From Pseudobdellovibrionaceae bacterium (GTDB lineage: Bacteria > Bdellovibrionota > Bdellovibrionia > Bdellovibrionales > UBA1609), in assembly GCA_023898385.1 (NCBI GenBank), contig CP060220.1:1228993-1292992 (forward strand): a stretch of 64,000 nucleotides of DNA, in the 5' to 3' direction. Under the pieces are notes generated by a model. That model was not told the origin of the DNA and ran no database searches. It saw only the letters and a list, made by a program, of their open reading frames with translations. This document shows positions 7,167 through 64,000 of this stretch, in pieces. Numbering within the stretch: position 1 is the first letter of the stretch; each line of letters begins with the position of its first letter. The position numbers were made by a program, and so were the translations under genes.

Positions 7167-7358
7167 TTAAGCAATCTTTTTCTTCAAGGCCTTAATTTCC
7201 TTCTCCAACTTATCCAAACGGCTCTCCTCTGCCTTTTTTCTAATGAGGGCCTCTTTGAGTAACTTATTTAAAAGAGTTTGATATGGCGCACCGGTGATAT
7301 TGGGATTTAAAATTCGGCAGCGTCTGGATGCGGATATACTCAGTGAGAGTACATCCAC
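7167..7358 (-). pseudogene. possible BrnA/CopG-like antitoxin remnant
   Basis: The 63-aa ORF contains GAPYQTLLNKLLKEAL, which resembles the C-terminal GxPYQTLI motif of BrnA-type antitoxins. The N-terminal part and a partner toxin are missing. Confidence 0.3.
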
Positions 7359-7723: not shown

Positions 7724-7843
7724 GAATCCATCCCGTTCATTTTTTTATTGTCCCCCGATGCTGCCGTCTGGCACAAATAAAATTGTTAGATTTCAAGACT
7801 TTGTGCTTGGAAGTCGAACAAACAACCAAAGGCCCACACAACA

Positions 7844-8581: not shown

Positions 8582-8589
8582 GTCCCAGA

Positions 8590-9018
8590 CTATTGGCCCC
8601 CAGAATCAAGGCCCACTTCTGCGTCTTCAGGAATTCTTTTAGCCGTCCTTTTAAGCTTTTCAACATAGTCCCGGTTTTTCACATACTGCTTTCTGGCTTT
8701 TTCAAACTCTTTTTCCTGCTGGAGCTTTTTCTGCTCAAACTCTTTTGCACTTTGTATGACCGGCTTAGGGCGGACAAACTGCCGCCGGGCCTCATCCCTC
8801 TCCTTTTCTAGCTTCTCCCGCCATCGACGCTGTTCATCAGCCGCTTGTTGGAGCTCAAACCGCTGACGCTTTAGGTCCATCTGCCGTTGGTAAAAATCCC
8901 CATAGCGATCATCCAGATCGCGAATCTGATCCATAAGTTCTGGGTCACGGGCGGCATCCACCTGGGATGTCGGCATCAAAATCCCAATAGCTAGAAATAG
9001 GGAAACAAATGTTTTCAT
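8590..9018 (-). CDS. secreted coiled-coil protein
   Basis: Internal start MKTFVSLFLAIGILMPTSQVDA (signal peptide), followed by charged heptad-like sequence. Confidence 0.6.
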   Translation of the reverse strand: MKTFVSLFLAIGILMPTSQVDAARDPELMDQIRDLDDRYGDFYQRQMDLKRQRFELQQAADEQRRWREKLEKERDEARRQFVRPKPVIQSAKEFEQKKLQQEKEFEKARKQYVKNRDYVEKLKRTAKRIPEDAEVGLDSGGQ

Positions 9019-45416: not shown

Positions 45417-45783
45417 GTTAGCAATGGCAGGCAATCGCCTGATCTCTCGGGATCAGGAGGAAAGTCCGGACTCCGCATGGCAACACAGGGGGTAACGCCC
45501 CTCCACCGTAAGGTGAGGACCAGTGGAACAGAAAGAATGTCCAGAGCTATGATCCTTTAGCCGGGAACGGGAGGCTTTAGGGGAGCTGCTGGAGTGAAAA
45601 CAGCTAAACTCTGTGTGGAGCAAGATCAAATAGGAAAGTGCTTGAGTGCGGCCAGCACAAGCTTTCGGGTAGATCGCTAAAGACATCAGGCAACTGAGGT
45701 CGTAGAGGAATGATTGCCCCAATCTCAAGATTCTCCAGGGCTTGAGATTGAGACAGAATCCGGCTTACAGCCACTGCTAATAT
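45417..45783 (+). ncRNA. rnpB: RNase P RNA, bacterial type A
   Basis: Plus-strand conserved blocks GAGGAAAGTCCGGACTCC, GGTAACGCCC, ACAGAAAGAATG, AGTGAAAAC, GCAAGATCAAATAGG, GGGTAGATCGCT, TAGAGGAATGATTGCC and ACAGAATCCGGCTTAC. P1 pairing joins TTAGCAATGGC (5') with GCCACTGCTAA (3'). Ends are +/- 5 nt. Confidence 0.9.
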
Positions 45784-50585: not shown

Positions 50586-50800
50586 GGGGCGGCCATTAAA
50601 CCCTGAAAACTAAAACTGGGTTTTTTCCTAACATAGCAGCAAAATAGGGTCCAATGAGACCAGGGACAATGAAAAGGAATTACTTGGGTTTATGGATTTA
50701 AATCAGACAACACGAACCTCCCCACGAAATCAGCGCCCCTATTTGTCATCCGTTCGTGTGAACCCTATTCACAACAGACAAACAAAGTGCAAAGCCAAAA

Positions 50801-50967
50801 GGTGACGGCCGGATTTGAACCTCTCGAGAACGCGTCAAAAAGCCAAAGGCTTTTTGACGTGGCCCGTGGTCGAGAGAACGAAGCGAGCCTTGCGAGCGCA
50901 GGGCTCGGAAACCAACAGGGTTCGGCTCCTGTCGAACCCTCCAAATAAAAATGGCCCCAATGGGGCC
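50801..50967 (-). repeat. R1: decayed tRNA-Cys 3'-end core (50801-50821) plus a 146-nt hairpin-rich arm
   Basis: About 95% identical by eye to 51893-52063. The core ggtgacggccggatttgaacc matches the tRNA-Cys copy at 60220-60240 at 20 of 21 positions. Confidence 0.8.
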
Positions 50968-50968
50968 G

Positions 50969-51115
50969 CTTGAGTTTGTCCTAACCTCCCTGAAAAGCCG
51001 TAAACGGCATCGTGGGGCAACGAATATCCCTCAGCTCTACTTTCGCCTCAAGGCAAGCAAAGAGCCTAATCTGCCCACAATCAGAAGAGTTGTCTTTAAT
51101 TGTTCAAGCCCTTAA
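50969..51115 (+). pseudogene. truncated copy of gene X (homologue of 60472..61011)
   Basis: Translates to LEFVLTSLKSRKRHRGATNIPQLYFRLKASKEPNLPTIRRVVFNCSSP*. Compare X residues 26-73, LEFILRHLMDRKRHRETTNVPQLYFKLKAQDEPNLPPLWHFKEVFSLL. It starts immediately after R1 and lacks both the N- and C-terminal parts. Confidence 0.7.
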
Positions 51116-51172
51116 GGACAGCCTCAAAATAACGCCTTGACAATCGTACCAATATAAGGGTACACTGATCTC

Positions 51173-51526
51173 GTGAAATTAGAGGCCCGATTTTTTCAGA
51201 CATCATCAGGAGCCGAGCCCACTCGCACTTTCTTAAAGAAGTTAGCGAAGAAAGACCGTGCTCAAGTAGGAGCATTGATTCGCAAGCTTCAAGTAGAGCA
51301 TTATTTGGAGGCCCCTCACGGAAAAAATCTTGGTGGTGGCCTTTGGGAAATTCGAGCTATAACAGAAGGCGGAAAAATCCGGGTCTTTTATTGTTTTGTT
51401 GGTAAGAAATATGTGGTGTTGCTTCACGCAATTTTAAAGAAGACTCCGAAGACACCCAAAAAAGACATGGATCTTGCTCGTAAACGAAAAAAAATAGTGG
51501 AGGATGACTATGGCAACAAAAAATAA
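51173..51526 (+). CDS. RelE/ParE-superfamily toxin (phage Gp49 / HigB-like)
   Basis: GTG start. FLKKLAKKDRAQVGALIRKLQ...LGGGLWEIRAITEGGKIRVFYCFVGKKYVVLLHAILKKTPKTPKKDMDLARKR is the Gp49-family pattern. Confidence 0.75.
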   Translation: MKLEARFFQTSSGAEPTRTFLKKLAKKDRAQVGALIRKLQVEHYLEAPHGKNLGGGLWEIRAITEGGKIRVFYCFVGKKYVVLLHAILKKTPKTPKKDMDLARKRKKIVEDDYGNKK

Positions 51527-51830
51527 AAAATCGCCTTTGGGTTCTTCATTCGATGAATGGTTAGATGACGAACTTAAAGACGAAGAATTTCAAGAGCACT
51601 TTGACAGTTATAAGGGGCAGCTTGATCTTGGCAATAAGCTTAAAAGCATTGCAGAAGAGCAAGGCTACTCTGTCCGAGGGCTTGCAAAAGCAATGGGCAC
51701 AAGCCCCTCTCAAGTGCAAAGAATGTTTTCTATCACAGCAACGAAATGTACCCTTGAAACCTTAATGAAGTTTTCTGTGATTACAGGCGTTGACCTTCAT
51801 CAAATTTTAAAGACTAAGAAAGCTTCTTAG
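51504..51830 (+). CDS. XRE-family HTH antitoxin
   Basis: Overlaps the toxin by 23 nt. HTH: GYSVRGLAKAMGTSPSQVQRMF. Confidence 0.75.
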   Translation: MTMATKNKKSPLGSSFDEWLDDELKDEEFQEHFDSYKGQLDLGNKLKSIAEEQGYSVRGLAKAMGTSPSQVQRMFSITATKCTLETLMKFSVITGVDLHQILKTKKAS

Positions 51831-51892
51831 AACCGTATAGATCAAAAAAAAAAGGGGGGGGTACCAACAGTTAAGTGAGAATAGCCTTTATT

Positions 51893-52063
51893 TGGAGGCG
51901 GCGGCCGGATTTGACCCTCTCGAGAACGCGGCAAAAAGCCAAAGGCTTTTTGACGTGGCTCGTGGTCGAGAGAACGAAGCGAGCCTTGCGAGCGCCGGGC
52001 TCGGAGACCAACAGGGTTCGACTCCTGTCGAACCCTCCAAATAAAAATGGCCCCAATGGGGCC
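51893..52063 (-). repeat. R2: tRNA-Cys 3'-end core (51893-51917) plus hairpin-rich arm, adjacent to the integrase gene
   Basis: The core tggaggcggcggccggatttgaccc matches 60216-60240 at 23 of 25 positions. The arm matches R1. Confidence 0.8.
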
Positions 52064-52079
52064 CTTTTTTATTTGGAGG
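52034..52079 (-). terminator. long (~20 bp) bidirectional hairpin downstream of int
   Basis: CCTCCAAATAAAAAtGGCCCCaatGGGGCCcTTTTTTATTTGGAGG. Confidence 0.6.
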
Positions 52080-52145
52080 TGAGGTAGCAAGTCCAATTAT
52101 TACCACTACTTGCCAGCCTCATCCACCACGAATCCGCCAGGCAGG

Positions 52146-53291
52146 TCATTTTTGACTCCTATTGAAGAGTTCAACGACCCGTCCCATAGTTTCCTTTCCA
52201 CTGAGGAGCTTGAGGCCCTTGGTGGCTCCCTGAACCTCGATCCCAGCCAACCTGATATATCGCTGCATGGTCTTGAGATCCTTCCAACCACAGATTTTCA
52301 TAACTACGGCTGGAGCTACTCCATCCCGAATGAGCTGGGTGGCAAAGCAGGCTCTCAGGGTGTGAAATTTCACTGAAGGGATACCAGCTCCTTCACAAAA
52401 TTTGCGAAGAATCTGCGCTTGCCTGCCGTCTTTCCAAGACTGATACCTGGGGAGAACAAACTCCCCATGCCTCCGTTTGGTTTTCAGCTCCTTGAGCAAA
52501 CCTAAAACTTGGCTGCCATCAATGGGAACAGTTCGCCAGTATCTCCCCTTGGTTGGGCCAAAGCCATCCTTGTTTGTCCAATTTCGATGGACATAAATGA
52601 CGTTGTTGTCAAAATCCACTTGGTTCCATTGAAGAGCGTAGAGTTCGCCACTTCTCATCCCAGTGAACAAGGCAACAGCCCAAACGGGATACCAGCCATG
52701 ATTGATTTTGAAGGCATACTCCAAGAGGGTTCTAATCTCGGTGAGGTTCAAAATCTCAGGGAGTTTTTCCTCTTCTTTTCGAGTGGACTTGTATCCATCG
52801 GTAGGAATGTAACTGATTCCTTTTACAGTTCCTGAAAGAATGGCCCACTTGAACACAGAATCAATAGCTGTTCGCAATCGCTTGCGGCGACTCACTGAAA
52901 TTTCACGCTCCACTTCATCAAGAGCTGACCAGGCATCTGCCTTGTCAATTTCCTTCACTGGCTTTTCTGCCCAGTGACCAACAAAGCGAGTGAGCACGGA
53001 CCTGTATTCCTCAATCGTACCCTCTGAAATAGACCTTGAGTGCAGCCTGTCCTCTCTCGCTGACAATTCCCAACGGCCAACAAGATCCTTCCACAGAACA
53101 CCTCGATGTTCTAATCTCGATACTTCTTGCTGAGCCGTTCTCAAAAGCTGCTTGCTAATGCGTTTGGCATCTTGCTTAGTTTTTATTCCTGATCTTGACC
53201 GTTCAATACGAATCGTAGGATCGTATTGGCTGCGAACTGACTCACGCACTTGATATAATTTTTGACCTTGTTTTTCATATTCTCTAATCAT
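52146..53291 (-). CDS. int: tyrosine-type site-specific integrase
   Basis: 381 aa. The C-terminal catalytic region has ...FTGMRSGELYAL... (R), ...FHTLRACFATQLI (H-x-x-R) and ...LKTMQRYIRL (Y). Confidence 0.9.
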   Translation of the reverse strand: MIREYEKQGQKLYQVRESVRSQYDPTIRIERSRSGIKTKQDAKRISKQLLRTAQQEVSRLEHRGVLWKDLVGRWELSAREDRLHSRSISEGTIEEYRSVLTRFVGHWAEKPVKEIDKADAWSALDEVEREISVSRRKRLRTAIDSVFKWAILSGTVKGISYIPTDGYKSTRKEEEKLPEILNLTEIRTLLEYAFKINHGWYPVWAVALFTGMRSGELYALQWNQVDFDNNVIYVHRNWTNKDGFGPTKGRYWRTVPIDGSQVLGLLKELKTKRRHGEFVLPRYQSWKDGRQAQILRKFCEGAGIPSVKFHTLRACFATQLIRDGVAPAVVMKICGWKDLKTMQRYIRLAGIEVQGATKGLKLLSGKETMGRVVELFNRSQK

Positions 53292-53569
53292 CGAAAACCT
53301 CCATTTCGTGAGGCTTCAATCAGTCGGTCAAGATCGACACGTTTGAAAAGTAACTTACGTCCACTTCTGTATTGAGGTAGATCGCCACGGCGAGCTTTGG
53401 CCCGAACACTGGCAACCGTTGACCTCATATATACTGCGGCTTCAGTGGCAGTAAGATACTTTTGGTTACTGATTAAGTTGTCAAAGAGCACTGCTGATTT
53501 CAGCTCTCTTCTTTTACTACGAACTCTTTGTAAATCATTGTTTTTTTTCATTGGAACCTCTCTTTTCAC
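53288..53569 (-). CDS. xis: excisionase / AlpA-type HTH DNA-binding protein
   Basis: YLTATEAAVYMRSTVASVRAKARRGDLPQYRSGRKLLFKRVDLDRLI matches the excisionase-family HTH pattern. It overlaps the int start by 4 nt. Confidence 0.75.
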   Translation of the reverse strand: MKREVPMKKNNDLQRVRSKRRELKSAVLFDNLISNQKYLTATEAAVYMRSTVASVRAKARRGDLPQYRSGRKLLFKRVDLDRLIEASRNGGFR

Positions 53570-54296
53570 TTTTTTTATTTTTTACTCCTGGGAATCCATA
53601 GGACAGTCCTCTTGAGCCACTGATGATCCGAGTCCTCTTGGGACGTTCTGGATCGAGAAATGCCAAGAGAAAGTTGCGGTCAAAAAAGTAGCCGAGCAGC
53701 CCTTCCAAATCCTGAGCCACCTCGAACCGTTCTGGGAACACCAAGGTTTCTTGAGGGCCAAGCTGCCGAGCCTTCTTTCTGAACAGCCCAAAGGCTTCCT
53801 CTTGAATCAGATAGTGGACGTGAGGGGTGGCACATCTTTCACCAATGCCTATGGTTCTGATGTACTTGCCGATCTTCCCAGACATCGCCTTACTAAGCAC
53901 AGGGGAGTACCTCAGTAACTTTCCCCAAGGATTTTCACCATCCTGAAGCGGCCAACTCACAATGCAGTGGACATTGATTTCGTACTTTTCAGCAAAGCGA
54001 ACCCCACTGTTGATGAAGTGGTTACGCCTGCGAAAACGACAGGACGGACAGGTCATGCGTTTACATGGCCAGTTGTCACTGCACCTCAATGGTCGGCGTA
54101 GAATTTGTCTGGAATTAAGCGTACTCCCCTCCCTAAAATGGGTAGGGGAGTTTTTCGTTGGGACTTGGGGAGCATTGTTAGGCACAGCTTCCCCCTTCCT
54201 CGGTGGTGTTTTCCGAATTAGGCCAGCCCTCACCAAGCCCCAGCGTCGTTGCAAATTGCTGAATCTCCTCTTCAGAAATTTGTGTGCGGCCTGCAA
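53535..54296 (-). CDS. putative rolling-circle replication initiator (HUH endonuclease-like)
   Basis: CPSCRFRRR zinc-ribbon-like segment and TPHVHYLIQ (an H-hydrophobic-H motif). The start is uncertain because it overlaps the upstream HTH ORF. Confidence 0.45.
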   Translation of the reverse strand: MQAAHKFLKRRFSNLQRRWGLVRAGLIRKTPPRKGEAVPNNAPQVPTKNSPTHFREGSTLNSRQILRRPLRCSDNWPCKRMTCPSCRFRRRNHFINSGVRFAEKYEINVHCIVSWPLQDGENPWGKLLRYSPVLSKAMSGKIGKYIRTIGIGERCATPHVHYLIQEEAFGLFRKKARQLGPQETLVFPERFEVAQDLEGLLGYFFDRNFLLAFLDPERPKRTRIISGSRGLSYGFPGVKNKKSEKRGSNEKKQ

Positions 54297-54417
54297 CTAT
54301 ATTCACCAGGCGGTCATAACTCAGATTGTAGTGCTGTGATGCCTGCCACAGGCTTCCGAACTGAAATATGAGCTGCCTGCGTAGCTCTGGCAGTTTTGTG
54401 CTTCTTTGTTCTCTCAT
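54178..54417 (-). CDS. small HTH regulator (Cro/Ner-like)
   Basis: 79 aa; GSLWQASQHYNLSYDRLVNIVAGR is HTH-like. Confidence 0.5.
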   Translation of the reverse strand: MREQRSTKLPELRRQLIFQFGSLWQASQHYNLSYDRLVNIVAGRTQISEEEIQQFATTLGLGEGWPNSENTTEEGGSCA

Positions 54418-54518
54418 TGTACCTCCTTCAAAAGTAAATTTTCTGAAGAAGAGATACAGCCAACAGGTAGCGATTGTAATGTTCTCGAAATCGCTCTTTC
54501 TCGCCTTTTGGGAACAAA

Positions 54519-55460
54519 TTAGCTTAGCAGAAGAAGTATTTGCTCAAGCCTTTTAAGTTGTACGAATCCATCCAGGCCGAAGCCATGCAAAGGGTCACTG
54601 TGTTTCTTATAATTTTGGATTTTACGATTCCAGTCCAGATTTACACCAAGGCGACCCAATAATTTTTCACAAAACTCTTTGGCTTGACCTGCACTATCAA
54701 AGCATTTTTTTTCATAGAGTGCCTTCAACAGAAATAGGGATGGAATCATTTTCAGTTTTTTGATGTTTCCTTTTTTGCCATACTCCAAAGCTAACCCACC
54801 TTCTTCATAGAGGCTTAACAAGATTGATGATAAATAATCAGCAACGTCGTTAACTTGCTTCCCGAGGTGCGAAGATTTATTGAAGTGAGCGTCTAACTCC
54901 GTCCGATCTCCCTGAAGAGTAAAAACAAGGATGTCCTGCTCTAAATCAACCACCTTTGTAAACTGTCTAATTCTATCAAGGGCTGGTCTGAACTCGACGA
55001 GTCTCATACCTTTGTCTTTACCAACCTTAACACCCATTTCCTTTAGCTTCGCTCCAATGGCGGAGACTGCTTGATTCAGATCAAAATCGACAGCCATGTG
55101 TGCAATCAGATAGTACTGGATTAGAGCAAAACGGCTTGAGTCTATAGGCCAAATTTGTCTTAGATCAAATGTTGAAAGTTTACCCTCTAATTCTTTCAAA
55201 TCGACGACTGAATCTTCCATACTTAGTCTTGGGTGCATTGCAAGTAACTCCTCAGCAGCTTCTGATAGCTTGGACTTTGTAACAGCAACATCCAGATTCA
55301 ATGGTTGCCCCATTGAGGTGTGCATTAGCCTTTCTGAAACAGCTTTTAGGAGGTCAGCCACATCACTTACAGTTGGTGCTGCCTTCTTTATGACTCCAAA
55401 GAGAGCCTTAGAAAGATCAGTCTCAATATGGTCCAAATATGGAATGTCTGGTTTTCTCAT
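54519..55460 (-). CDS. hypothetical 313-aa protein, first gene of the leftward element operon
   Basis: Long ORF with no motif recognised. It is divergent from the TerS-like gene across a 70-bp region. Confidence 0.55.
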   Translation of the reverse strand: MRKPDIPYLDHIETDLSKALFGVIKKAAPTVSDVADLLKAVSERLMHTSMGQPLNLDVAVTKSKLSEAAEELLAMHPRLSMEDSVVDLKELEGKLSTFDLRQIWPIDSSRFALIQYYLIAHMAVDFDLNQAVSAIGAKLKEMGVKVGKDKGMRLVEFRPALDRIRQFTKVVDLEQDILVFTLQGDRTELDAHFNKSSHLGKQVNDVADYLSSILLSLYEEGGLALEYGKKGNIKKLKMIPSLFLLKALYEKKCFDSAGQAKEFCEKLLGRLGVNLDWNRKIQNYKKHSDPLHGFGLDGFVQLKRLEQILLLLS

Positions 55461-55530
55461 GGTCTTTTATCGGTAAAACGGCCTGAAGATAAAATGTCGA
55501 TCTCTGCGTAAAAAATTGGTACGTTGAGGT

Positions 55531-56034
55531 ATGGCGAGACCGACAAAATATCAGCCTATTTACTGCGAAAAAGTTGTAAAGCACTGTGCTAAGGGTCACA
55601 GCTTCGAGACCTTCGCTACCTCAATAGGAGTTTCGAGCCGTACAGTAAGGAACTGGGCAACAAACTTTCCAGAGTTTTCTGAAGCCTGCGAAAATGCCAA
55701 AGTGGCAGCCTTATATTTTTTTGAAAAACAACTCCTTTCTGGTATCAGTGGTCGGTCCAAGAAAAATGCGGCATTGCTGATCTTTACTTTGAAAACCAGA
55801 TTCCACGAAGTCTATGGGCAACCCAAATTAGAGATTGAGGCACAGGTAGGTATTGACCCTCCAGGTACGTTCGAGTTCAAGGGCAGAAAAGTAACTGGGG
55901 CTGAGCTTGGCGTTGAAGAGCTTGAAGAAGCCACTCAAGACCTCAAGGATCAAATCAAGGAAAAGGAAGCAAAAATCTATGCCCTTGAAAATGACCCCGA
56001 TCCACTTACTGAATGTGAGTCCTCTTTTTTATAA
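55531..56034 (+). CDS. terminase-small-subunit-like HTH protein
   Basis: MARPTKYQPIYCEKVVKHCAKGHSFETFATSIGVSSRTVRNWATNFPEFSEACENAK follows the common TerS N-terminal pattern (RPtKY.pe....i......G.s......igvs.rTv..W....peF). C-terminal coiled coil. Confidence 0.45.
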   Translation: MARPTKYQPIYCEKVVKHCAKGHSFETFATSIGVSSRTVRNWATNFPEFSEACENAKVAALYFFEKQLLSGISGRSKKNAALLIFTLKTRFHEVYGQPKLEIEAQVGIDPPGTFEFKGRKVTGAELGVEELEEATQDLKDQIKEKEAKIYALENDPDPLTECESSFL

Positions 56035-56095
56035 GCGGAAAAAACTCCAGGGAAGAGGTTTTTGGGGGAAATGATAAATTAGAAATAGGCGATGC

Positions 56096-56887
56096 CTATT
56101 TCTTAAAAGCCATCATAGGACTGTCAAGCAGGCTAAATGATAGAGGGCTTGACTCTTTCCCTGGAAAAATCAGACTCTTTGCGTCCTCGCCCAACCTATA
56201 AACCAGGTGTACGGGTTCTTTTTTGTTTTTCCACACCCCAGCGAAGGACTCGCAATTTGCCTTAGCCTTTTCAAGGTTACTGTAAAAGTCATAGGGCAAT
56301 TTTTTATCTTTTGGGAGCTCAGTGTTTTCAACCTCACTGCTCAGATAAACAAGTTCCGATTTCAAATTCGCCAGCCTCAGGTATCTATTCGAAGAATCGC
56401 CAAGCAATGTGTTGCGTTCTACCAAAATTGTATCTTGAACAGTTGCAGTAACCTTCAACGTACATTCACCTCTACCTACAGAAAACTGTGTACACTCTTT
56501 CTTACCGTCGTCATGCTCGTAGCAATCACAGTGTTCGGCATTTGCTGGGCAGCTTTGGACCTCTTCAGAAACGTAGTACTCAAAAAACTCTTTACTAAAT
56601 TCAAAAGTCAGGCTTTTGGACTCTTGCTCCAGGGACATATATGATTTGCCACACCTTTGCCCAAACACCAGACGAGTGATTTTGTCAGAGGGTTTCCCTG
56701 TGAAATAATCATGACAATAGCCTTCCCACTCACCAGTTAGTTTAGGGGTTTCTTCAGCAGTTGTGACAGTTGTCTTTTCTTTTGGGCTAAAATCAGGGGC
56801 AATAGGCTTGTCAAAAGTAGGTCCACACGCCATCAAAAGAGAGCAAGTCAAAATCCCCAAGAAAATTTGATTTCGGTTTACACTCAT
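56096..56887 (-). CDS. lipoprotein, Cys-rich, unknown function (element cargo)
   Basis: Lipobox LLMAC. 263 aa. Confidence 0.6.
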   Translation of the reverse strand: MSVNRNQIFLGILTCSLLMACGPTFDKPIAPDFSPKEKTTVTTAEETPKLTGEWEGYCHDYFTGKPSDKITRLVFGQRCGKSYMSLEQESKSLTFEFSKEFFEYYVSEEVQSCPANAEHCDCYEHDDGKKECTQFSVGRGECTLKVTATVQDTILVERNTLLGDSSNRYLRLANLKSELVYLSSEVENTELPKDKKLPYDFYSNLEKAKANCESFAGVWKNKKEPVHLVYRLGEDAKSLIFPGKESSPLSFSLLDSPMMAFKK

Positions 56888-56894
56888 TTAAGAC

Positions 56895-57833
56895 TCACCA
56901 TTCACTATGACGAAGCAAGCAGGATGCCTCTATTGCAACCTTTTTCTTTCCATCATCACTTGTACAATTTGTCGAAATCTGTAGAGCAGCACCCTTACGA
57001 TCAATCGTATGGATACAGTTAGTCACATCCTCCGCAAATGTGCCACCCTCAGATTTGACTCCAACTCTTGCCTTGGAATTAGAATTTACCGATTTTTGGG
57101 GTCCATTCAGGTCAAGGTTGACGCCGCTAAACGTGATAGACACATAGTCACGGCTCGAATCACTCCCCACAGAATCTCCATCAACCTCAAGGATCATATA
57201 GTAAAACTGAAGTTTATCTTCGTTGTTTAGCGAACAATTGATCGAATCATGCAACCCTTCCTGCTCATAGTTTGTTCGACCAGCAACTGTTTTGTCGATT
57301 TCAAGATTAGCAAGCCCTTCACGTTCAACACTGGCCTTAATACTCTGCTTGAAGGTCAGTGATTGGGCTGTTTTGGTTGCCAACTTGCTCTCGTTGATAC
57401 GCTTAAACACATGCTTAACCCCTTGGGGGCTATTCCCCTCAGAAAGAAATTCAAGGGTCAGAGAATTGCTTGAGTAGCTATGAACAACAAAGTCGGTCAT
57501 TGAGAAATTTTCTTCGTCTATCGTGATAACCTTATTGCCTTCAACTTTGTATGGTAGCTGTGGCTCTGAGAAATGAACAAAATCAGTGCTGATAAGAGTA
57601 AGTGTTTTTTCGTCGATTTGGAGCTGAGTCCACTCTGAAACATTTCTATCAGCATAAGGATTGTTGGGGTCGGGGCGATTTGGCTTCATGGATTGACCAT
57701 TGAAAAACATGGAGTCAATTTCCCAAGCACCAATAATTGCCTTGAAAATCCCAGCCTTACTGTTTCCCGATCCACCTTTTCCGCCGCAACCCACGGCAAG
57801 AATCGCTGTGAGGGCTATAAGTATTTTTTTCAT
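56895..57833 (-). CDS. lipoprotein with lipocalin-like N-terminal region (element cargo)
   Basis: Start MKKILIALTAILAVGC (lipobox). GAWEIDSMFFNG...TLTLIS...YKVEGNKVITI is lipocalin-like. Confidence 0.6.
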   Translation of the reverse strand: MKKILIALTAILAVGCGGKGGSGNSKAGIFKAIIGAWEIDSMFFNGQSMKPNRPDPNNPYADRNVSEWTQLQIDEKTLTLISTDFVHFSEPQLPYKVEGNKVITIDEENFSMTDFVVHSYSSNSLTLEFLSEGNSPQGVKHVFKRINESKLATKTAQSLTFKQSIKASVEREGLANLEIDKTVAGRTNYEQEGLHDSINCSLNNEDKLQFYYMILEVDGDSVGSDSSRDYVSITFSGVNLDLNGPQKSVNSNSKARVGVKSEGGTFAEDVTNCIHTIDRKGAALQISTNCTSDDGKKKVAIEASCLLRHSEW

Positions 57834-58107
57834 GCTTGCCTCCAATTTTGGCATAGGACTCACCCTGTACTGCTAATACAGTCCACTTTGATGAATACTC
57901 TTAATTCTAAGTGCTTAAATAGCAAAGGGTGTGCCTGATGACCAGGGCAAAACCTTTCCGCCAACTCTCCACCAGAAATCCGCCATTTTGATTTATGGTG
58001 AGTGATGTTCAGTAATGTAAAGTACGTGTCGATCCGACTAACTGATTGAAACCATTTGTTTATAATTTTAGTGATTTACCATTTTTTGAGCCTCGGCCAG
58101 GCTGTAA

Positions 58108-59996
58108 ATTACCGAGTAGCCGAGGCAGCTGGCATTACCACCAGCCCCTCAGCCCTCACCGAACCGTACGTACGCGTTCACGTATACGGCTCTCCCAGAT
58201 TAAAGCAAGCTACCTTGCTTGTGGTCGAGATGATTGGGTATCACACCTATAGGCTTTATAGGTCTCCATATGGTCTTGGCTACCTTCGTCAGTTTGCGCC
58301 ACGGCACCGGGCGACCGCCTCTCCGGTACTTCCGCTTGAGGTACTGGTAGATTTGGCGGCGTACGGAATGGAGTTCTCGGTAAATGATGCTGTTGCCGTT
58401 CGAATACCGAAAGTAATTGCACCAGCCTCGCCATACCGATTGCACCACATCCCGCGCCTCATTCATTGTAAGATGAACGTGGAGCTTCTCCTTGAGACTG
58501 GCCTTCAAACTGCGACGGGCCTTTTCTGATGGTTGCCTAGCAATCCAAAATCGCTCAGGGTTATCAGTGAAGGCCCGAAGGTGAATCTTAAACCCCAGAA
58601 AATCAAACTTCGATTGATGGCTACGCCGTTCATTGGTCATATCCACCTCTCGAGTCTTACTCTCTTTGAGACTAAGTTCTCCCTCGCGCATCCATATGTA
58701 TAAAAATCTTCGAGCCGTCTTGAGTTCAGCCTGCGTTTTTGCTGTAATCACAAAATCATCAGCATAACGGAATAGCTTCACCCTAGAGCTTTGCCCATAG
58801 ACTTCCATAAATCTTTCATCAAGCACATGGTGGAGGTAAACGTTGGCTAGCAATGGCGACAGCGGCCCCCCTTGCGGGGTCCCTTTACCACTGGGCTGCC
58901 AAGGCTTACCGGGCTCCTGAAAACCTGACTTAAGCATCTGGCTGATCAACCGGAGAATTCGGGGATCACAGATCTCTCTTGTCAGCATTTTTAAGAGTTT
59001 ATTGTGACTGACTTGATCGAAGAACTTCTCGATGTCAGCCTCCAAGATGTGTCGATGGCGGTAGACTTGTTGAGCCACTTTGGCTACACAATCTACCGCT
59101 TTCCTATGCGGCCGAAACCCATAGGAACAATCATGAAACCTTTGCTCGTAAACCACCTCCAATAGCAGTACGAGCACCCGTTGGACCACGCGGTCCTCCA
59201 GGTTAGGAATACCCAAAGGCCTTTGCTCCCCATTGCTTTTGGGGATGTAAGTGCGTTTGACCGGACCCGGTTGATAAGTCCTCACTCTGAGTCGCTCACT
59301 CAGATCTTTCACGAAATCCCATTCCTTGCCCTTAACCGACACTACGGTAACTTGGTCAAGACCCGCGCTACCGCGGTTCTTAATCACCAACTCTAGCGCA
59401 TCAGCCAGGAGGTATGGGTCTGTAAGATAGCGATATAGATCCCACTGCTTACGACCTTTCTTTGCATGCTCGGCCACCCGGATCCGAATGTGTCTTGTTT
59501 GTGGGCTAAGGGACATGTACTTCCTAGCCCCGGTTGGATGTTGGTTCATCTCAAGATCCTCATTACATACACAATTGCAAATCCAAGTTCCTTCTGGACC
59601 TGACAACCCCTTCCTCTGACTTCGTCCGTTGAGTCTCGACAGGTTTCCTTGTCTTCGTGAGTACTATGGGTGTCTCTGACTTCTTTTACGACACCTGATT
59701 GGAGCTTATTGACTTCACTCCTTTGGTTGTGAAGGCTTCAACCTCCTCCACTGTCTTAAAAGATCTCTCCGGTTAACTTCTATGACTCTCATTCACCCGC
59801 CCCCAGCCAGTGACAAGGATGCTGCCGTGAGGGCAAACCCAGAGTTCTCCCGCACAGTCTTGCCTTCTACGTCGCCAACCGCTTGGGCCTAGCATCGTCT
59901 TCCCAGCGAGATGAGAGCTTCGAAGGAGCGAGGCTCATCGAAGCCGCCTTATTAGCTGTTCACTTGTGTTGAGGCTGATGAATGTTACTTGCGCAC
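58108..59996 (-). mobile_element. group II intron (~1.9 kb, endonuclease-less, compact, class C-like size)
   Basis: 5' end GTGCGC at 59996 (GUGYG). Domain V at 58161-58192 is GAGCCGTATACGTGAACGCGTACGTACGGTTC, with the AGC triad. Domain VI has a bulged A at 58117, 9 nt before a ...AAT end. The RT ORF sits in domain IV. Ends are +/- a few nt. Confidence 0.8.
58200..59549 (-). CDS. group II intron reverse transcriptase/maturase (no HNH/En domain)
   Basis: Start MNQHPTG. RT motifs RPLGIPNLEDRVVQ, LEADIEKFFDQVSH, GTPQGGPLSPLLANVYL and RYADDFVI. Maturase X region WRGWCNYFRYSN. It ends shortly after domain X. Confidence 0.9.
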   Translation of the reverse strand: MNQHPTGARKYMSLSPQTRHIRIRVAEHAKKGRKQWDLYRYLTDPYLLADALELVIKNRGSAGLDQVTVVSVKGKEWDFVKDLSERLRVRTYQPGPVKRTYIPKSNGEQRPLGIPNLEDRVVQRVLVLLLEVVYEQRFHDCSYGFRPHRKAVDCVAKVAQQVYRHRHILEADIEKFFDQVSHNKLLKMLTREICDPRILRLISQMLKSGFQEPGKPWQPSGKGTPQGGPLSPLLANVYLHHVLDERFMEVYGQSSRVKLFRYADDFVITAKTQAELKTARRFLYIWMREGELSLKESKTREVDMTNERRSHQSKFDFLGFKIHLRAFTDNPERFWIARQPSEKARRSLKASLKEKLHVHLTMNEARDVVQSVWRGWCNYFRYSNGNSIIYRELHSVRRQIYQYLKRKYRRGGRPVPWRKLTKVAKTIWRPIKPIGVIPNHLDHKQGSLL

Positions 59997-60215
59997 AGTA
60001 CCTCGTGCCGCTTTTCGCCTGCTACTTAACTCCCGTGGGTCACCCCAACCGAAAGCCGCAGGAGGTTTTAGTCGGCGGGTCTGGGCCCTTCCGACACCAC
60101 TTGCCACAGCGAACGATCTTCGACAAATCGGCTGCGCCGATGTTCGACTCCCGAAGGGGCTTACATCTCGGAACGACTGTGAGTGGTAAAGTCATAGAGT
60201 CATCTTCGGACGAAA

Positions 60216-60284
60216 TGGAGGTGGCGGCCGGATTTGAACCGGCGTACACGGATTTGCAGTCCACTGCCTAGCCACTCACAGGGC
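60216..60284 (-). pseudogene. tRNA-Cys(GCA) lacking the 5' acceptor strand (att site / truncated gene)
   Basis: The minus strand reads ...GCCCtgtgagtggctAGGCaGTGGActGCAaaTCCGTgtacGCCGGttcaaatCCGGCcgccaccTCCA. The D-arm, anticodon arm (GCA), T-arm, U73 discriminator and CCA are present. The 7 nt that should pair with CGCCACC read tcaattt. Confidence 0.75.
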
Positions 60285-60471
60285 TTAAATTGAAAAAATC
60301 AAAGATTTAAAGGATTGCTAATTTAAGATTTCAACAACATTATATTGTTGTAATATTTACCTTATTTTAGCAATTTTGAGCAAAATAATCCACTTTTAGC
60401 TGTTAAATTATCAAATAAATGCTAATGTTATTTTAAATTGTTCCGATAGGTTGTTCTAAAAGGAGATTTGC

Positions 60472-61011
60472 GTGAAGAACCTCAGCGAAGTCGAAAAGAG
60501 CCTCCACGAAATTGTGGCCAACACCCACCCTGATCTAAGGGAGAGTCTGGAGTTCATTCTGAGACACCTTATGGACCGTAAGCGACATAGAGAGACCACC
60601 AATGTTCCACAGCTCTATTTCAAGCTAAAAGCTCAAGACGAGCCGAATTTGCCCCCTCTATGGCACTTCAAAGAAGTCTTTAGTCTCTTGGCAGAGGTTG
60701 GCGTGGGAAAACTGGATGAAACCACTCGTGATATGCGTTTTATGTTTCTCTATGAAGTTCAGTCCGTCGGGGCCTGTGGCCTGGGAAAAGGACACCTAAA
60801 ACTAACGCCGAACCAAGCCTCTGATGAAAATACTCAGCCCGAAGAGGAGTTGAGCCCCATGGCTTTGGTCCACAGAACTCTTTCTGTTGAAGTCCCTTTA
60901 AAAAACGATCGAAAAGCAAAGCTTACCCTTCCATTGGATCTAACCAATAGTGAATGGAAGAAGATCTATCAAATTGCGAGCAAAGCAAGGGAGAGCCGGA
61001 TTAAGAATTGA
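60472..61011 (+). CDS. gene X: hypothetical 179-aa protein (intact copy)
   Basis: GTG start after a AAGGAG RBS. Homologous to the pseudogene at 50969-51115. Confidence 0.6.
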   Translation: MKNLSEVEKSLHEIVANTHPDLRESLEFILRHLMDRKRHRETTNVPQLYFKLKAQDEPNLPPLWHFKEVFSLLAEVGVGKLDETTRDMRFMFLYEVQSVGACGLGKGHLKLTPNQASDENTQPEEELSPMALVHRTLSVEVPLKNDRKAKLTLPLDLTNSEWKKIYQIASKARESRIKN

Positions 61012-61087
61012 CAGCTGTACCACTTTAAAGACTCCAAAAATGAATCAAACCTTTGCACGTTAAAAAAAGAAAATTGCATAGATACAA

Positions 61088-61255
61088 GGCTATTCTGTGA
61101 GAGCTTTAGCTGAAGCAGTGGGGACCAGTCTTTCTCAGGTACAAAGAATGTTTTCAAGCACAGCAACCAAATGCACGCTAGAAACACTTATGAAGTTTTC
61201 GGTGATTACTGGAGTGGATCTCCATAGAATTCTTAAAATAAACAAGGCATCTTAA
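61088..61255 (+). pseudogene. 3' fragment of an XRE antitoxin gene (paralogue of 51504..51830)
   Basis: Reads GYSVRALAEAVGTSLSQVQRMFSSTATKCTLETLMKFSVITGVDLHRILKINKAS*, versus GYSVRGLAKAMGTSPSQVQRMFSITATKCTLETLMKFSVITGVDLHQILKTKKAS* in the intact gene. There is no start codon, and the toxin gene is absent. Confidence 0.8.
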
Positions 61256-61353
61256 GCCTCAACTCTTTTTATCTCCGCACTCCTCGAATTTATTTCACAG
61301 GGGAACTCTTCTGAGCCCTGACGAAACAAAGTTCAAGGGCCTTGGAGGTAAAA

Positions 61354-62334
61354 ATGAAACACTTAATTCTTCTCTTAACACTTACCATTCTGACAGGTTG
61401 TGGATCCAAGGAAAATTCACCACCATCAGCTCCACCTGTTGGCATCGAACCTTGTGTTGATTGCATTCCTGAAGATGACCCATTGGGGCGAATAACTAAG
61501 ACTGATTACACTCTTAATGACCTCTGGCAAGAGGGATTTCCGAAAGACAATCTTGATGCTGAACATCACACATACTTAAAAGGTAATGGTTTTGAGATTG
61601 CTCCTATTAAAAACGACCTGTATGGCAGAGCTTTTTACTTAGAAAAAGTTCATTGTGGTGGAATTACTGACCAAAGAACCTATGTTGGCTTCACTGATGA
61701 ATACACCAAAAACTCACAAATTCTTATTAGAATTACGGGAAATAGGATTGAGCAATTCTCCTACCGGACAACTATTAATTCCAATCCATCAGCCTATGCG
61801 CAAGTTGAGAAAATTTCCGAAGAGACTTGGGATTGCGTAGAGGGAGTTTTACATCGACCTGGGGATGTCAATTATGGAACTCCGGACAGCGACAACTATT
61901 TGGCTTTGGGATCTATTGCTGTTGGTAAAATAGGAACCTGGTTTGTATTGGCATTTCAAGATAACTCAATCAATCCGACACTTCCTGGCACCACAGAATA
62001 CTATCAGGTTCTTTATAAAAGTGGTTTTCTACAACCGACAAATAACCAAGAGATTACAATTGGCAAAAATAACCCAGCAAAGCTTATCTACTACGACAAC
62101 GGATTTATACAGTGTGAATACACAGCGAACTCAAACATTTTTAGCCAAATCATCTCAGGTAATATAAATACAAGAATTTTTACTGCGCACAGCGGGATCC
62201 AACAAGAGAAAGCTCACTTTATTCAAATCAAGAATCTTTCCGACAAAAATAATCAACCAAAAGAATGCATTTACGGGAATTTTTCAGAAGATTTAAACAC
62301 AAAATTTATTGATCTCGTCATGGCTTGCAAATAA
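61354..62334 (+). CDS. lipoprotein, unknown function
   Basis: ATG after a GGAGG RBS. MKHLILLLTLTILTGC lipobox. Confidence 0.65.
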   Translation: MKHLILLLTLTILTGCGSKENSPPSAPPVGIEPCVDCIPEDDPLGRITKTDYTLNDLWQEGFPKDNLDAEHHTYLKGNGFEIAPIKNDLYGRAFYLEKVHCGGITDQRTYVGFTDEYTKNSQILIRITGNRIEQFSYRTTINSNPSAYAQVEKISEETWDCVEGVLHRPGDVNYGTPDSDNYLALGSIAVGKIGTWFVLAFQDNSINPTLPGTTEYYQVLYKSGFLQPTNNQEITIGKNNPAKLIYYDNGFIQCEYTANSNIFSQIISGNINTRIFTAHSGIQQEKAHFIQIKNLSDKNNQPKECIYGNFSEDLNTKFIDLVMACK

Positions 62335-62344
62335 GGAGTGTGCA

Positions 62345-62941
62345 ATGTTTTTAGCTAAGCTTATTTATTTTTTATTACTTTTAAGTGAAATAATTCTAAC
62401 TGCAATAAAAATTCTCACCTTGATAGCCTTCACATTATTCCTAACATCTGTTCCCACTATTGGAGTCGGTCTATTTCTTGACCGAATTCCTTGGCCAGTA
62501 GACTTTCCTTTGCTTCTCATAATTGGGGCAGTAGCAACGGCCATGGCACTTTTTAAATTTACAATTGGTCAAGTGCGCAAGACAAAGAACCTTCTAATTG
62601 CCATCATATATAATAGAGAAGACTGTTTGATGAAAATTCAAAATCTATTTGAGCGAGATCAAAAACTTAGGGCTTCAATTGAATGCCTAGAAAATGAATT
62701 CCAAGCCAAAAAGGTCAAACTCGATGAACAATTGAAAAAGCAAGAGCTGGCCATAAAAGAAGCCAATATTAAAATGGCTCAAAATATAGAGAAGCATAAT
62801 AACCATATCATAAAGCTAAAAAACAACGTCGATCAGGAACTCCATGCTTATGCACTTAAAAAAGCCATAGAGCGTTTTGCCGGAGATAAGGCAATTGAAA
62901 AAGCGGCTCTGAAGAAAACTGGAAACGACTGGGATCATTAG
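62345..62941 (+). CDS. membrane protein (2-3 TM) with cytoplasmic coiled coil
   Basis: Start MFLAKLIYFLLLL after an AGGAG RBS. The C-terminal half is heptad-rich. Confidence 0.55.
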   Translation: MFLAKLIYFLLLLSEIILTAIKILTLIAFTLFLTSVPTIGVGLFLDRIPWPVDFPLLLIIGAVATAMALFKFTIGQVRKTKNLLIAIIYNREDCLMKIQNLFERDQKLRASIECLENEFQAKKVKLDEQLKKQELAIKEANIKMAQNIEKHNNHIIKLKNNVDQELHAYALKKAIERFAGDKAIEKAALKKTGNDWDH

Positions 62942-63162
62942 TGGGCATTGATCCAAATAGCAGCGTCGTCAATATGGGGCCAGAGCGGTCGAATTTTGAC
63001 AATTTTTGTCATTCCAGTCTGGCATTTTTTGTACTTATGATTTGATTGCCTTCAAAATCTTCTTCAGAACAAAAATATCAGCCTCTTAGACGATCTAAAC
63101 TAGGAATGGAATTTGTAATTACTGCAAGCGTAAATAAAATTGACACGTTTTTGGAGAAAACA

Positions 63163-64000
63163 ATGAAAAAGCTAATTCTTGCAGGAAGTTTAATAGCCTT
63201 ATCCTCAATATGGGTGGCATGTGATTCTAAATTTGTAGAATCCTCCCCTGATTCTGTCCAGCTCAGTGGTATAACACTTGATGAGCGATTAACTCAAAAG
63301 GCTGAGATTGATGAGAGAATCAATCAAATTGACCAAGGAGTTGAAAAGGTAAAAAGAATCATTGATCTGTTTAAAAAGATTCAAAACCCTGATCAAGCAC
63401 AAGATGTTTATACCCCGATAGATTTTGTACTTGATGTCAATGCAGAACTAAAAGCTAAAATCCCTGAAAACCGAGACGGTCGCCTTGTCCGATATAGCAA
63501 AATTGAACTTCCTCTCACAGTATTGTCTGAAGAATGCAGAACACTCCATACCTCCCTCGAATCAAGCGTCATCTACGAAGAGTCCGATGAGGAATCAACT
63601 ACTGAGTCTACAGAGAAAAAAGCCATCGGTGAGAAACTGACTTATTCTTTTCGTTCATGCGCTTCAGAAGAAAAGTACCTCGTTGCTGTTGAGGCTAACT
63701 GGATCGGTTCAAACTTAGAGATTAAGTTGAACAATGAAAATTTAGAAACAATTTTCAAAGACATCGTAGTTAACGAGGTTTTAAAAGATTCCGCATGTAG
63801 AATCACTCAAGACTCCGAGAAAATTATCGACACCATTCACTGCTCAAACATTAAGGTTCAACTTTCAAACAGTGAAGATGCCATGGTTAATGATATGATT
63901 TTCAATAATTCCGGTGAAGTTCGATTTGAAGCTAATGCCGATATTTTTGAGAATGCTCGCAAAAAAGCAACTTCAGAAATCACAGTCCTTGCGAATGGCG
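63163..64000 (+). CDS. lipoprotein, 5' part (runs off window end)
   Basis: Not in the ORF track because there is no stop. MKKLILAGSLIALSSIWVAC lipobox. The frame is open to the end of the window. Confidence 0.6.
   Translation, partial: MKKLILAGSLIALSSIWVACDSKFVESSPDSVQLSGITLDERLTQKAEIDERINQIDQGVEKVKRIIDLFKKIQNPDQAQDVYTPIDFVLDVNAELKAKIPENRDGRLVRYSKIELPLTVLSEECRTLHTSLESSVIYEESDEESTTESTEKKAIGEKLTYSFRSCASEEKYLVAVEANWIGSNLEIKLNNENLETIFKDIVVNEVLKDSACRITQDSEKIIDTIHCSNIKVQLSNSEDAMVNDMIFNNSGEVRFEANADIFENARKKATSEITVLANG

Follow-up and report, generated by a model that had tools for sequence, protein, structure and literature searches.

Integration into tRNA genes (tDNAs) reportedly falls into sublocation classes that were set out by Williams in 2002. 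In Islander, tDNA islands have a tyrosine integrase and a direct-repeat fragment of the tRNA gene at the island end; the anticodon loop, the T loop and the T/acceptor junction are recognised as sublocations, and successive integration leads to tandem arrays (PMC4383910). Tandems of at least three islands were recorded there only 4 times, against 3919 islands in 2168 genomes. Here, we describe a 64,000 nt stretch of contig CP060220.1 from a Pseudobdellovibrionaceae bacterium (positions 1,228,993–1,292,992; the window) that contains part of a tRNA-Cys gene, on the minus strand. The window is the downstream two-thirds of an integration hotspot, with at least four insertions at different sublocations of this one 74 nt gene. 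We consider it probable that the hotspot is layered, with the tRNA-Cys(GCA) gene split by one element (C), a second element (B) at its CCA end, a group II intron behind the CCA, and scars of older integrations (the U repeats) farther downstream. Unlike in Islander-type islands, all three sublocations of a single gene appear to be used at once, C does not rebuild the gene, the identity block of B is unusually short (8–11 nt), and an integrase is lacking for two of the tRNA fragments. Public contigs and loci that were fetched for comparison (n = 118) carry L numbers.

A second relevant strategy is tRNA-dependent lysogeny, described for the actinobacteriophages Fionnbharth, Cluster L and Gaia (Guerrero-Bustamante and Hatfull, 2024, mBio, PMC10865867). 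There, a tyrosine integrase acts at a common core of approximately 10 bp in a tRNA gene, neither junction has a functional tRNA, and the element carries a tRNA that is identical in isotype. Prophage Lj965 of Lactobacillus johnsonii is cited in the same paper. Element C resembles these phages in its short core, its unrebuilt tRNA and its own tRNA of the same isotype. It differs in that phage structural genes are absent and FtsK-like, Rep_trans-like and methylase genes are found instead, in that the host belongs to the Bdellovibrionota and the target is tRNA-Cys, and in that core, tRNA and int form a compact module that is conserved across the Int-C family.

The initial annotation of the window was built on a tRNA-Cys 3′ end that occurs in three direct copies, and these are real and non-random. 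The 25-mer GGTTCAAATCCGGCCGCCACCTCCA is found on the minus strand at 60216–60240 with no mismatches and at 51893–51917 with two (matches expected in shuffled sequence, 0.00). A third copy at 50801–50821 matches the tRNA 3′ end at 20/21 positions, and its CCA has indeed decayed, with TTT in its place. As had also been reported, genes for a tyrosine integrase and an HTH_17 excisionase-type protein lie between the copies, and several tandem elements occupy this integration hotspot at tRNA-Cys, with another island on the right. No functional tRNA-Cys had been seen, and ARAGORN found no tRNA or tmRNA in the 64 kb window. With the Rfam tRNA model, 60226–60275 aligned to model positions 7–64 at 26.7 bits (gathering score 29), and the 5′ acceptor strand is absent from the tRNA-Cys(GCA) copy at 60216–60284, which on the minus strand, from 60284 to 60216, ends in tgtgaGTGGCTAGGCAGTGGACTGCAAATCCGTGTACGCCGGTTCAAATCCGGCCGCCACCTCCA. 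The hotspot reading stands; where the crossovers lie, where the elements end and why the tRNA is truncated all need revision. The 168 nt direct repeat, the group II intron and the homology of the DNA right of 60285 to the "1.1-kb remnant" of the initial annotation had not been noticed.

The sequence at 60216–60284 had been taken for a nearly complete tRNA. It is a chimera, in which a 35 nt host 3′ half is joined at the anticodon loop to an arm of element C, and its D-arm and anticodon-stem part (60251–60275) is element sequence, not host sequence. Contigs found in public assemblies via the window proteins run approximately 8.7 kb farther right than the window, and four of them (L001, L003, L004 and L007) are 100% identical to it over 60216–64000. 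In L007 and L008, the order in tRNA orientation is a host 5′ tRNA-Cys half, element sequence, an intact tRNA-Cys(GCA) and the integrase gene. The host 5′ halves (GGTGGCGTGGGAGAGCGGCTATCCAGCGGACTGCAAATC in L007 and GGGTGGCGTAGCCAAGTGGCTAGGCACTGGACTGCAAATC in L008) follow the pattern GGTGGCG...GGACTGCAAATC, and the same element sequence, TCCTTAGAG (TCCTTAGAGATGG...), borders both. The flanking genes differ (ComM-like in L007, hemerythrin in L008). At the opposite end, the element arm ...aagccctgtgaGTGGCTAGGCAGTGGACTGCAAATC meets two host 3′ halves, namely CGTGTACGCCGGTTCAAATCCGGCCGCCACCTCCA in the window, L001 and L003, and CATGAACGCAGGTTCGAATCCTGTCGCCACCTCCA in L002. Two hosts have been split by C at the same nucleotide. 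The core shared by C and its host is the 12 nt GGACTGCAAATC in the window-type host and, with one mismatch, approximately 25 nt in the host of L008.

When the 5′ half from L007 was joined to the 3′ half from the window, ARAGORN recognised a canonical 74 nt tRNA-Cys(GCA), and it made no call in the window chimera alone or in the L007 attL junction alone. Viewed by itself, the window shows no 5′ acceptor strand, and 60216–60284 could then be a decayed pseudogene with a deleted 5′ end, unrelated AT-rich DNA on its right and a functional tRNA-Cys elsewhere. We regard this as highly improbable, as the matching 5′ half lies at the other end of a 100% identical element, the two halves join to a canonical tRNA, and the same element splits a different tRNA-Cys gene at the same nucleotide in a second host. 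The 5′ acceptor strand is thus missing from the window, as first stated, but not through decay: C splits the gene, and the 5′ half is approximately 12.4 kb to the right. For the same reason, the disrupted gene has no regenerated intact tRNA at the proximal end. As one element arm meets two hosts at the same nucleotide, we conclude that C integrates at GGACTGCAAATC in the anticodon stem–loop and that the gene is not rebuilt. The model junctions are ...CCAGCGGACTGCAAATCCGTGTACGCC for attB(C) and ...GGCAGTGGACTGCAAATCTCCTTAGAGATGG for attP(C).

Element C is 12,436 nt plus the 12 nt core and extends past the right edge of the window. Its own tRNA-Cys(GCA) was identified by ARAGORN at 20129–20202 in L007 and 14943–15016 in L008, approximately 150 nt from the junction and directly upstream of int, which encodes a 364 aa tyrosine integrase (PF00589, 6.6e-9 in L007). 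The integrases of C (USN48601.1) and B (USN48577.1) are encoded in one 3.33 Mb genome, and the accession number of the former is 24 later than that of the latter, the same as the number of genes separating the two. As both are in one genome at this spacing, the full element C is present in the source genome. The working tRNA-Cys copy is most likely the element-borne one, approximately 12 kb right of the fragment, and we infer that it supplies the cell. The 12,495 nt contig JAGRAG010000009.1 (L003) starts exactly at the tRNA CCA (window 60216) and, by coordinate transfer from L007, ends exactly at the right-hand core of C. As both ends fall at att sites, the assembly graph broke at both, as expected if several junction variants coexist in the sample.

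Searches of Pfam and PHROGs identified a tyrosine integrase, an FtsK-like protein, a faint Rep_trans-like hit and a C5 methyltransferase in C, and none of ten C proteins had phage structural or lysis hits in PHROGs. To judge from this gene content, C is apparently a non-phage element. Actinomycete integrative and conjugative elements (AICEs) such as pSAM2 integrate in tRNA genes, and C resembles them in having int, an FtsK-like translocase gene and a Rep-like gene in a tRNA gene, on weak to moderate profile hits.

Relatives of the C integrase (Int-C) are rare, with 8 homologues among 5.8 billion proteins and none in IMG/VR. In 5/5 Int-C family loci examined (C, L029, L118, L030–L032 and L116), a tRNA-Cys is directly 5′ of int; the L116 contig begins inside this tRNA gene and shows its 3′ end only. 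Integrase identities to Int-C are 62% (L029), 61% (L118), 41% (L030–L032) and 39% (L116). L029 has the same architecture as C, including the tRNA-Cys inside the element, and its displaced host 3′ half (17076–17115; ...AAATCCGCC abutting TGTCACCTCCA) has lost the variable loop and T arm. With the T arm gone, excision could not restore the host gene, and no tRNA-Cys at that locus is intact other than that of the element. In L118, from a Bdellovibrionales metagenome-assembled genome (MAG; GCA_020435005.1), a ComM-like gene is followed by an intact tRNA-Cys (2375–2448) and a truncated int, and the far end (7463–7523) consists of a P arm and a 47 nt block identical to the tRNA. Judged by these junctions, L118 is a canonical sister of C with a rebuilt tRNA. 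Compared with C, it shows that one integrase family holds both tRNA-rebuilding and tRNA-replacing forms, and L118 stands to C as Boilgate, the canonical sister with a long core, stands to Fionnbharth (PMC10865867). The L030 locus (9660–11080) and its counterparts L031 and L032 are in phage-like contigs with SLT, PA14 and RNA ligase genes. They too have a tRNA-Cys before the int homologue, and an anticodon-loop-like site, AGACTGCAAA, approximately 100 nt farther upstream is a possible attP of a phage with the strategy of C.

Element B lies on the other side of the host 3′ half, most likely from 60215 to 52082 (8.1 kb, comprising 6.0 kb and the intron), with its P′ end at 58110. Contig L013 corresponds to window 52052–58136 at 100% identity. 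The B integrase (Int-B) has 1994 homologues at E ≤ 1e-30, mostly from Bdellovibrionota, and some of these relatives, together with an HTH_17 gene, are at the ends of integrative and conjugative elements (ICEs) that bear a type IV secretion system. The possibility that Int-B and Int-C are related and share a site was rejected, as they are unrelated beyond the catalytic fold. In L001, which comes from a sister strain, an 8.6 kb element (D, 77–8721) holds the place of B behind an identical tRNA 3′ half. It carries an int whose product is 47% identical to that of B, and genes for HTH_17, DUF5906 primase-helicase, AlpA, SNase and DUF1828/1829 proteins, and both of its ends share the 16 nt GCCGCCACCTCCAAAT.

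After the int genes, the DNA of B and D cannot be aligned until a 42 nt block of 100% identity, CACCTCCAAATAAAAAAGGGCCCCATTGGGGCCATTTTTATT (window 52081–52040), which starts exactly at CACCTCCA and in D is preceded by further tRNA 3′-end sequence, GGGGTTAAGCCGC (GGTTAAGCCGCCACCTCCA). Cores of the CACCTCCA type are also found approximately 115 nt after int in L035 (...GGTCACCTCCA followed by AATTTTGC) and L033 (...CAGCACCTCCA followed by ATTTTTTG), and NCCTCCA occurs 66–120 nt past the match in 8/11 metagenome loci at ≥56% identity. The complete 6.6 kb element in L097 has a tRNA-Cys end of ...GTCGCCTCCA followed by ATTT and an attR of ...CTCCGCCTCCA followed by TATTT, and its ends share only 8 nt, CGCCTCCA. 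From the B/D block together with the cores in L033, L035, L097 and the metagenome loci, we place the distal end of B at 52071–52081, which leaves the 25-mer at 51893–51917 outside B. On these comparisons, the Int-B family most likely recombines at the extreme 3′ end of tRNA-Cys, with the core CACCTCCA(AAT). This site was assigned to the T/acceptor junction, the "J" subsite of Islander (PMC4383910). Before C arrived, B alone would have had an intact tRNA and a displaced fragment.

The initial annotation instead had an 8.3 kb element with ends at the 25-mers, 60216–60240 and 51893–51917. That boundary belongs to a simple tandem array made by one T-loop-targeting integrase (52146–53291), in which the 1.1 kb piece is a decayed sibling and a set of stacked hairpins, R (51918–52063), is the P arm. 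No tRNA identity in the region is longer than that of the 25-mers, and the succession of int, terminator, R and core is a normal attP layout, with R present in both lower units. The relatives of Int-B, however, have neither R nor T-loop identity and carry only an 8–16 nt ...CCTCCA core 60–120 nt after int, B and D switch from unalignable to identical sequence exactly at CACCTCCA, and the 93% match of the body of the 1.1 kb piece is with a C-family element rather than with B. We therefore consider a simple array unlikely. The "8.3-kb element" includes 2.1 kb of group II intron, and the "1.1-kb remnant" is not a decayed member of an array but an 861 nt C-family fragment with 93% DNA identity to L118, between the 168 nt repeats. 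The T-arm edge of identity, which had been proposed as the crossover, is probably not that of the integrase between the copies, whose relatives carry only ...CACCTCCA; the cores of the 168 nt repeats do show a T-loop-type signature. The two boundaries predict different circular junctions. With B ending at 52071–52081, attP(B) would read ...CTACCTCACCTCCAAATTTACAGCC, without R, and with the earlier boundary the circle would include R and read ...CTCGAGAGGGTCAAATCC...CCTCCA, then TTTCGTCC (with the intron) or AATTTACAG (without it).

Phage satellites include phage-inducible chromosomal islands (PICIs) and the P4 type. PICIs are small islands with int, an excision regulator, a replication module and a packaging-hijack gene such as that for the terminase small subunit (TerS), and a helper phage induces them; we know of no description of PICI-type satellites for Bdellovibrionota. 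On weak to moderate profile hits, B resembles phage satellites in having int, xis and a TerS-like gene in approximately 6 kb, and D in combining int and AlpA with a DUF5906 primase. In B, Pfam and PHROGs revealed no replication gene. The TerS-like gene hints at a satellite-like lifestyle of B.

The intron directly behind the CCA appears to separate the attL core of B from its P′ arm. Its bounds were inferred from the Logan contigs L006, which ends at 60189, and L013, which starts at 58136, and from a related intron end in L001. With k = 31 assumed for the Logan assemblies, the multi-copy unit ends at approximately 58107 and approximately 60218, corresponding to CCA, intron and AAT(T) in succession. 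L001 opens (positions 1–71) with a related intron 3′ end in reverse complement (...CCCTGGCTACTCGGT) abutting AATAAAAATGG; in the window, CCCTCCA precedes AATAAAAATGG. The related L001 intron adjoins another CCTCCA-AAT motif, in a hairpin behind an integrase gene. This arrangement suggests a lineage of introns homing to the 3′ end of tRNA-Cys or to the att cores of islands. A candidate exon-binding site 1 (EBS1), TGGAGG at 59745–59750, is complementary to CCTCCA, a match that alone is not significant. The 220 nt at 59996–60215 were also considered as the P′ arm of B; this was disfavoured by their GC content of 0.57, against 0.44 in the B cargo and 0.51 in the intron, and by the contig break at 60189. 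No second intron copy that might fix the 5′ end was found in the window or the fetched loci, and the minimum free energy fold of the 5′ 566 nt was uninformative (z = −1.5). The reverse transcriptase (RT) with an ATG start is not on record, and plasmid RTs are only approximately 34% identical to it. If the outer boundary is right, the intron between the attL core and the P′ arm probably immobilises B.

Bacterial group IIC introns insert behind terminator or attC hairpins. The intron described here is similarly just 3′ of a stem–loop (the T arm and acceptor end) and has a short exon-binding match. It differs from group IIC introns in an inferred 5′ end without GUGYG and in its target, the CCA end of a tRNA gene or an island att site.

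Beyond the distal end of B, two 168 nt direct repeats, U(a) and U(b), are spaced by exactly one unit of 1096 nt. Each ends in a T-loop-to-3′-end tRNA copy in direct orientation, with identity from G52/G53 onward. The RNA fold of U has a z-score of −6.3, and the differences between U(a) and U(b) are not compensatory. R and the 168 nt repeat were also examined as a tmRNA, permuted tmRNA or tRNA-like gene and rejected, as ARAGORN found none of these, no Rfam family matched, and a search by E-value gave only noise, with a best tmRNA hit of 6.6 bits over 11 nt; T-loop-like GGTTCGAC motifs in U are parts of palindromic hairpins. Three copies of the 12-mer CCTCCAAATAAA surround U(b), at 52068–52079, inverted at 52034–52045, and at 51887–51898, in an observation that covers 51887–52079 and 50938–50967. 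They give U(b) perfect 12 nt terminal inverted repeats and a hairpin with 21 nt arms, and may be integrase core sites, intron targets or coincidental.

The repeats enclose a C-family fragment that matches the P-arm-proximal end of the L118 element and includes overlapping toxin and antitoxin genes (overlap 51504–51526) that qualify as a HigB/HigA-type pair. The proteins are 93–99% identical to those of the pairs in L029 and L118, and this cassette contains no integrase gene. Element C retains only the C-terminal 52 codons of an antitoxin gene, 85% identical to the one between the repeats, and has lost the toxin gene; the intact pair of the same family is 9 kb away. A homopolymer tract, A10 G8 (51844–51861, plus strand), is found between the stop codon of the antitoxin and core(b), where the C-family fragment ends, and could be slippage-prone or assembly-sensitive.

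From their structure, we read the U repeats as putative attR-type scars, each a P arm and a core, of at least two older T-loop integrations whose integrases have since been deleted. They might instead have arisen without an integrase, if a circle with one U and the toxin–antitoxin fragment entered an older U by Campbell-type recombination, or if the 1096 nt unit was partly duplicated in tandem. The length of the repeat, its 95% identity, the exact spacing and the missing integrase all fit such an origin, as does the first hairpin of U(b), which acts like a native terminator directly after the tRNA. In L040, a terminator follows the intact relative tRNA at once, and by this analogy the hairpin directly behind the attR of B was probably the tRNA-Cys terminator before B arrived. 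Recombination or duplication leaves the source of the first U unexplained, however, and each repeat ends precisely in a directly oriented T-loop-to-3′-end tRNA copy, which under the principle used by Islander (PMC4383910) is the signature of a tDNA integrase. An origin without an integrase is, in our view, less likely than scars but a serious alternative.

Accretion at tRNA or fda sites is known from Streptococcus thermophilus, where integrase-less, att-flanked cassettes (cis-mobilisable elements, CIMEs) are found beside integrase-bearing elements such as ICESt1 and ICESt3. The window resembles this in having an integrase-less cassette with att-type repeats in tandem with the integrase-bearing B. 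It differs in that the repeats are 168 nt and the crossover sublocation is not that of Int-B, and this different sublocation makes mobilisation of the cassette in cis by Int-B unlikely.

Using the junction sequences, identity blocks, gene content, occupancy polymorphism and element-borne tRNA described above, a sequence of steps can be proposed; event order, element activity and dependence of the cell on the element tRNA are part of this proposal. The older T-loop integrations would have left two U scars around the C-family toxin–antitoxin fragment, with their integrase genes deleted. B would have integrated at the extreme tRNA-Cys 3′ end, its ends now at 60216–60223 and 52071–52081, and the group II intron would have retrohomed directly behind the CCA, parting the attL core of B from its P′ arm. 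C, as the newest element at the locus, would have recombined at its 12 nt anticodon-loop core and, with an attP that lacks the rest of the tRNA, split the host gene. The 3′ half would have stayed at 60216–60250 with the 5′ half approximately 12.4 kb to the right, and the tRNA-Cys of C would supply the cell.

The occupancy of the site in relatives, a check proposed in the initial annotation, gave replacements but no empty site. D was found instead of B beside 100% identical DNA, and C was found in two different hosts. The only match to a 47-mer of the host 3′ half in GTDB genomes was the occupied Bdellovibrionales MAG contig JAGRAG010000009.1, and an intact anticodon-spanning 46-mer had 0 matches in Joint Genome Institute (JGI) metagenomes. 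Contigs found via the chromosomal 390 aa neighbour or via the toxin all break at the R repeats.

Several points weigh against the layered hotspot as proposed. Neither an empty site, sought in GTDB genomes and JGI metagenomes, nor a circular junction was recovered. The right end of C, where the 5′ half and the element tRNA lie, was read outside the window, from identical or near-identical contigs of other samples and from the accession evidence, and dependence of the cell on the element tRNA-Cys is presumed. Core(b), at 23/25 positions, is closer to the tRNA than the proposed 11 nt attR of B, which gives the boundary of the initial annotation some weight. The inferred 5′ end of the intron is UUUCG rather than GUGYG, with a GUGCG 220 nt inward at 59995, and the 5′ boundary is uncertain. 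Finally, the 168 nt repeats may be scars or products of recombination or duplication; the exact R 35-mer is absent from IMG/VR, and BLAST of the 118 loci matched only contigs of the same region.

The coordinates of the features are listed in Table 1. The host tRNA-Cys 3′ half includes the 25-mer copy at 60216–60240 and the attL core of B, CACCTCCA, at 60216–60223.

Table 1. Positions of features at the tRNA-Cys hotspot, in window coordinates
Feature	Position	Strand	Evidence
U(a), 168 nt repeat: terminator hairpin GGCCCCATTGGGGCC and T-run, ~120 nt of stacked hairpins (R), core(a)	50800–50967	.	95% identical to 51896–52063
core(a), tRNA-Cys T loop to acceptor 3′ strand, GGTTCAAATCCGGCCGTCACC, then chromosomal flank	50801–50821	-	20/21 match
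ORF188 homologue, 5′-truncated, internally deleted	50951–51115	+	L118 comparison
C-family fragment, 861 nt	50970–51830	+	93% DNA identity to L118 7191–7085 plus 6764–6011
Gp49/HigB-like toxin	51173–51526	+	PF05973, 1.9e-22
HTH/HigA-like antitoxin	51504–51830	+	HTH_26, PF13443, 8.6e-8
core(b), second displaced tRNA-Cys 3′-end copy, GGGTCAAATCCGGCCGCCGCCTCCA	51893–51917	-	23/25 match
U(b), second 168 nt repeat (51896–52063) and long hairpin with 21 nt arms (52034–52079)	51896–52079	.	Direct repeat; RNA fold
Inferred attR core of B, CACCTCCAAAT, 11 nt: extreme tRNA-Cys 3′ end and 3 nt	52071–52081	-	B/D identity block; motif in relatives
Tyrosine integrase of B, 381 aa, identical to USN48577.1	52146–53291	-	PF00589, 3.5e-23; phrog_1, 1e-56
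Excisionase-type HTH_17 protein of B	53288–53569	-	PF12728, 2.1e-9; phrog_66 excisionase, 2e-4
B cargo: open reading frames (ORFs) of unknown function, TerS-like protein, two predicted lipoproteins	53535–58110	.	PHROGs
Terminase-small-subunit-like protein of B	55531–56034	+	phrog_309 TerS, 9.4e-18
Group II intron, directly behind tRNA CCA, inside attL of B	58111–60215	-	Rfam, Pfam, contig breaks
Intron domain V–VI	58111–58194	-	Rfam RF00029, 48.9 bits (gathering score 40)
RT/maturase ORF of intron	58200–59606	-	RVT_1, 1e-38; GIIM, 1.9e-6
Host 3′ half of tRNA-Cys, 35 nt, from anticodon-stem 3′ strand through CCA	60216–60250	-	ARAGORN on rejoined halves
Common core of C, GGACTGCAAATC, anticodon stem and loop	60251–60262	-	Sole sequence common to both C junctions in two different hosts
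D-loop-like/tRNA-like stretch GTGGCTAGGCAGT in the P arm of C, element sequence	60263–60275		Contig comparison
Left 3.7 kb of element C	60263–64000	.	100% DNA identity to L001, L003, L004, L007; 99.8% to L002, L008
ORF179 of C	60472–61011		
Antitoxin remnant of C	61097–61255	+	
Lipoprotein gene of C	61354–62334		

Elsewhere in the window, a full-length bacterial class A RNase P RNA (45419–45783, plus strand; Rfam RF00010, 222 bits) is 5 kb from the hotspot. Positions 1–7000 are AT-rich (GC 0.34–0.38, against approximately 0.46 elsewhere), encode a sigma-54 activator and a polysaccharide deacetylase, and may be another island. They also contain, at approximately 6190–6760 on the minus strand, an apparent second small toxin/HTH-antitoxin pair, judged by eye.

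The components of this locus (tDNA islands, tandem arrays, tRNA-dependent integration, an intron and a toxin–antitoxin pair) are all of known kinds, and it is their combination on one gene that is unusual. Also unusual is a module for tRNA-dependent integration, with a canonical sister, in an element of Bdellovibrionota that is apparently not a phage. A single 74 nt gene appears to have been used at the anticodon loop, the T loop and the acceptor/CCA end, with an intron behind the CCA, which covers every known landing mode. The locus therefore probes what island-finding software takes for granted. An Islander-type search, which looks for an intact tDNA and for a single fragment with each integrase, would put every boundary of this locus in the wrong place or overlook it, and annotation of the genome should not list tRNA-Cys as missing. 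Integration that replaces the tRNA has not previously been seen outside phages, and C is apparently not a phage; tRNA-dependent integration is thereby extended to another phylum and to an element without recognisable phage genes. How the canonical and tRNA-dependent forms relate was asked by the authors who described tRNA-dependent lysogeny (PMC10865867), and the L118 sister and the decayed host half in L029 bear on this question.

We tentatively suggest, as a possibility that we would not yet favour, that Int-C-family elements are a one-way ratchet of tRNA gene replacement in Bdellovibrionota, in which the ancestors were canonical and of the L118 type, and some lineages took up a complete tRNA-Cys with its promoter while the core was cut to 12 nt. 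If so, integration would destroy the tRNA-Cys gene of the host, possibly its only one, and the cell would come to depend on a non-phage, possibly conjugative element. As the host halves decay, as in L029, or become buried, as by the intron and B here, loss of the element would be lethal. The attP core, tRNA and int would then form a portable addiction or stabilisation module that is not restricted to phages.

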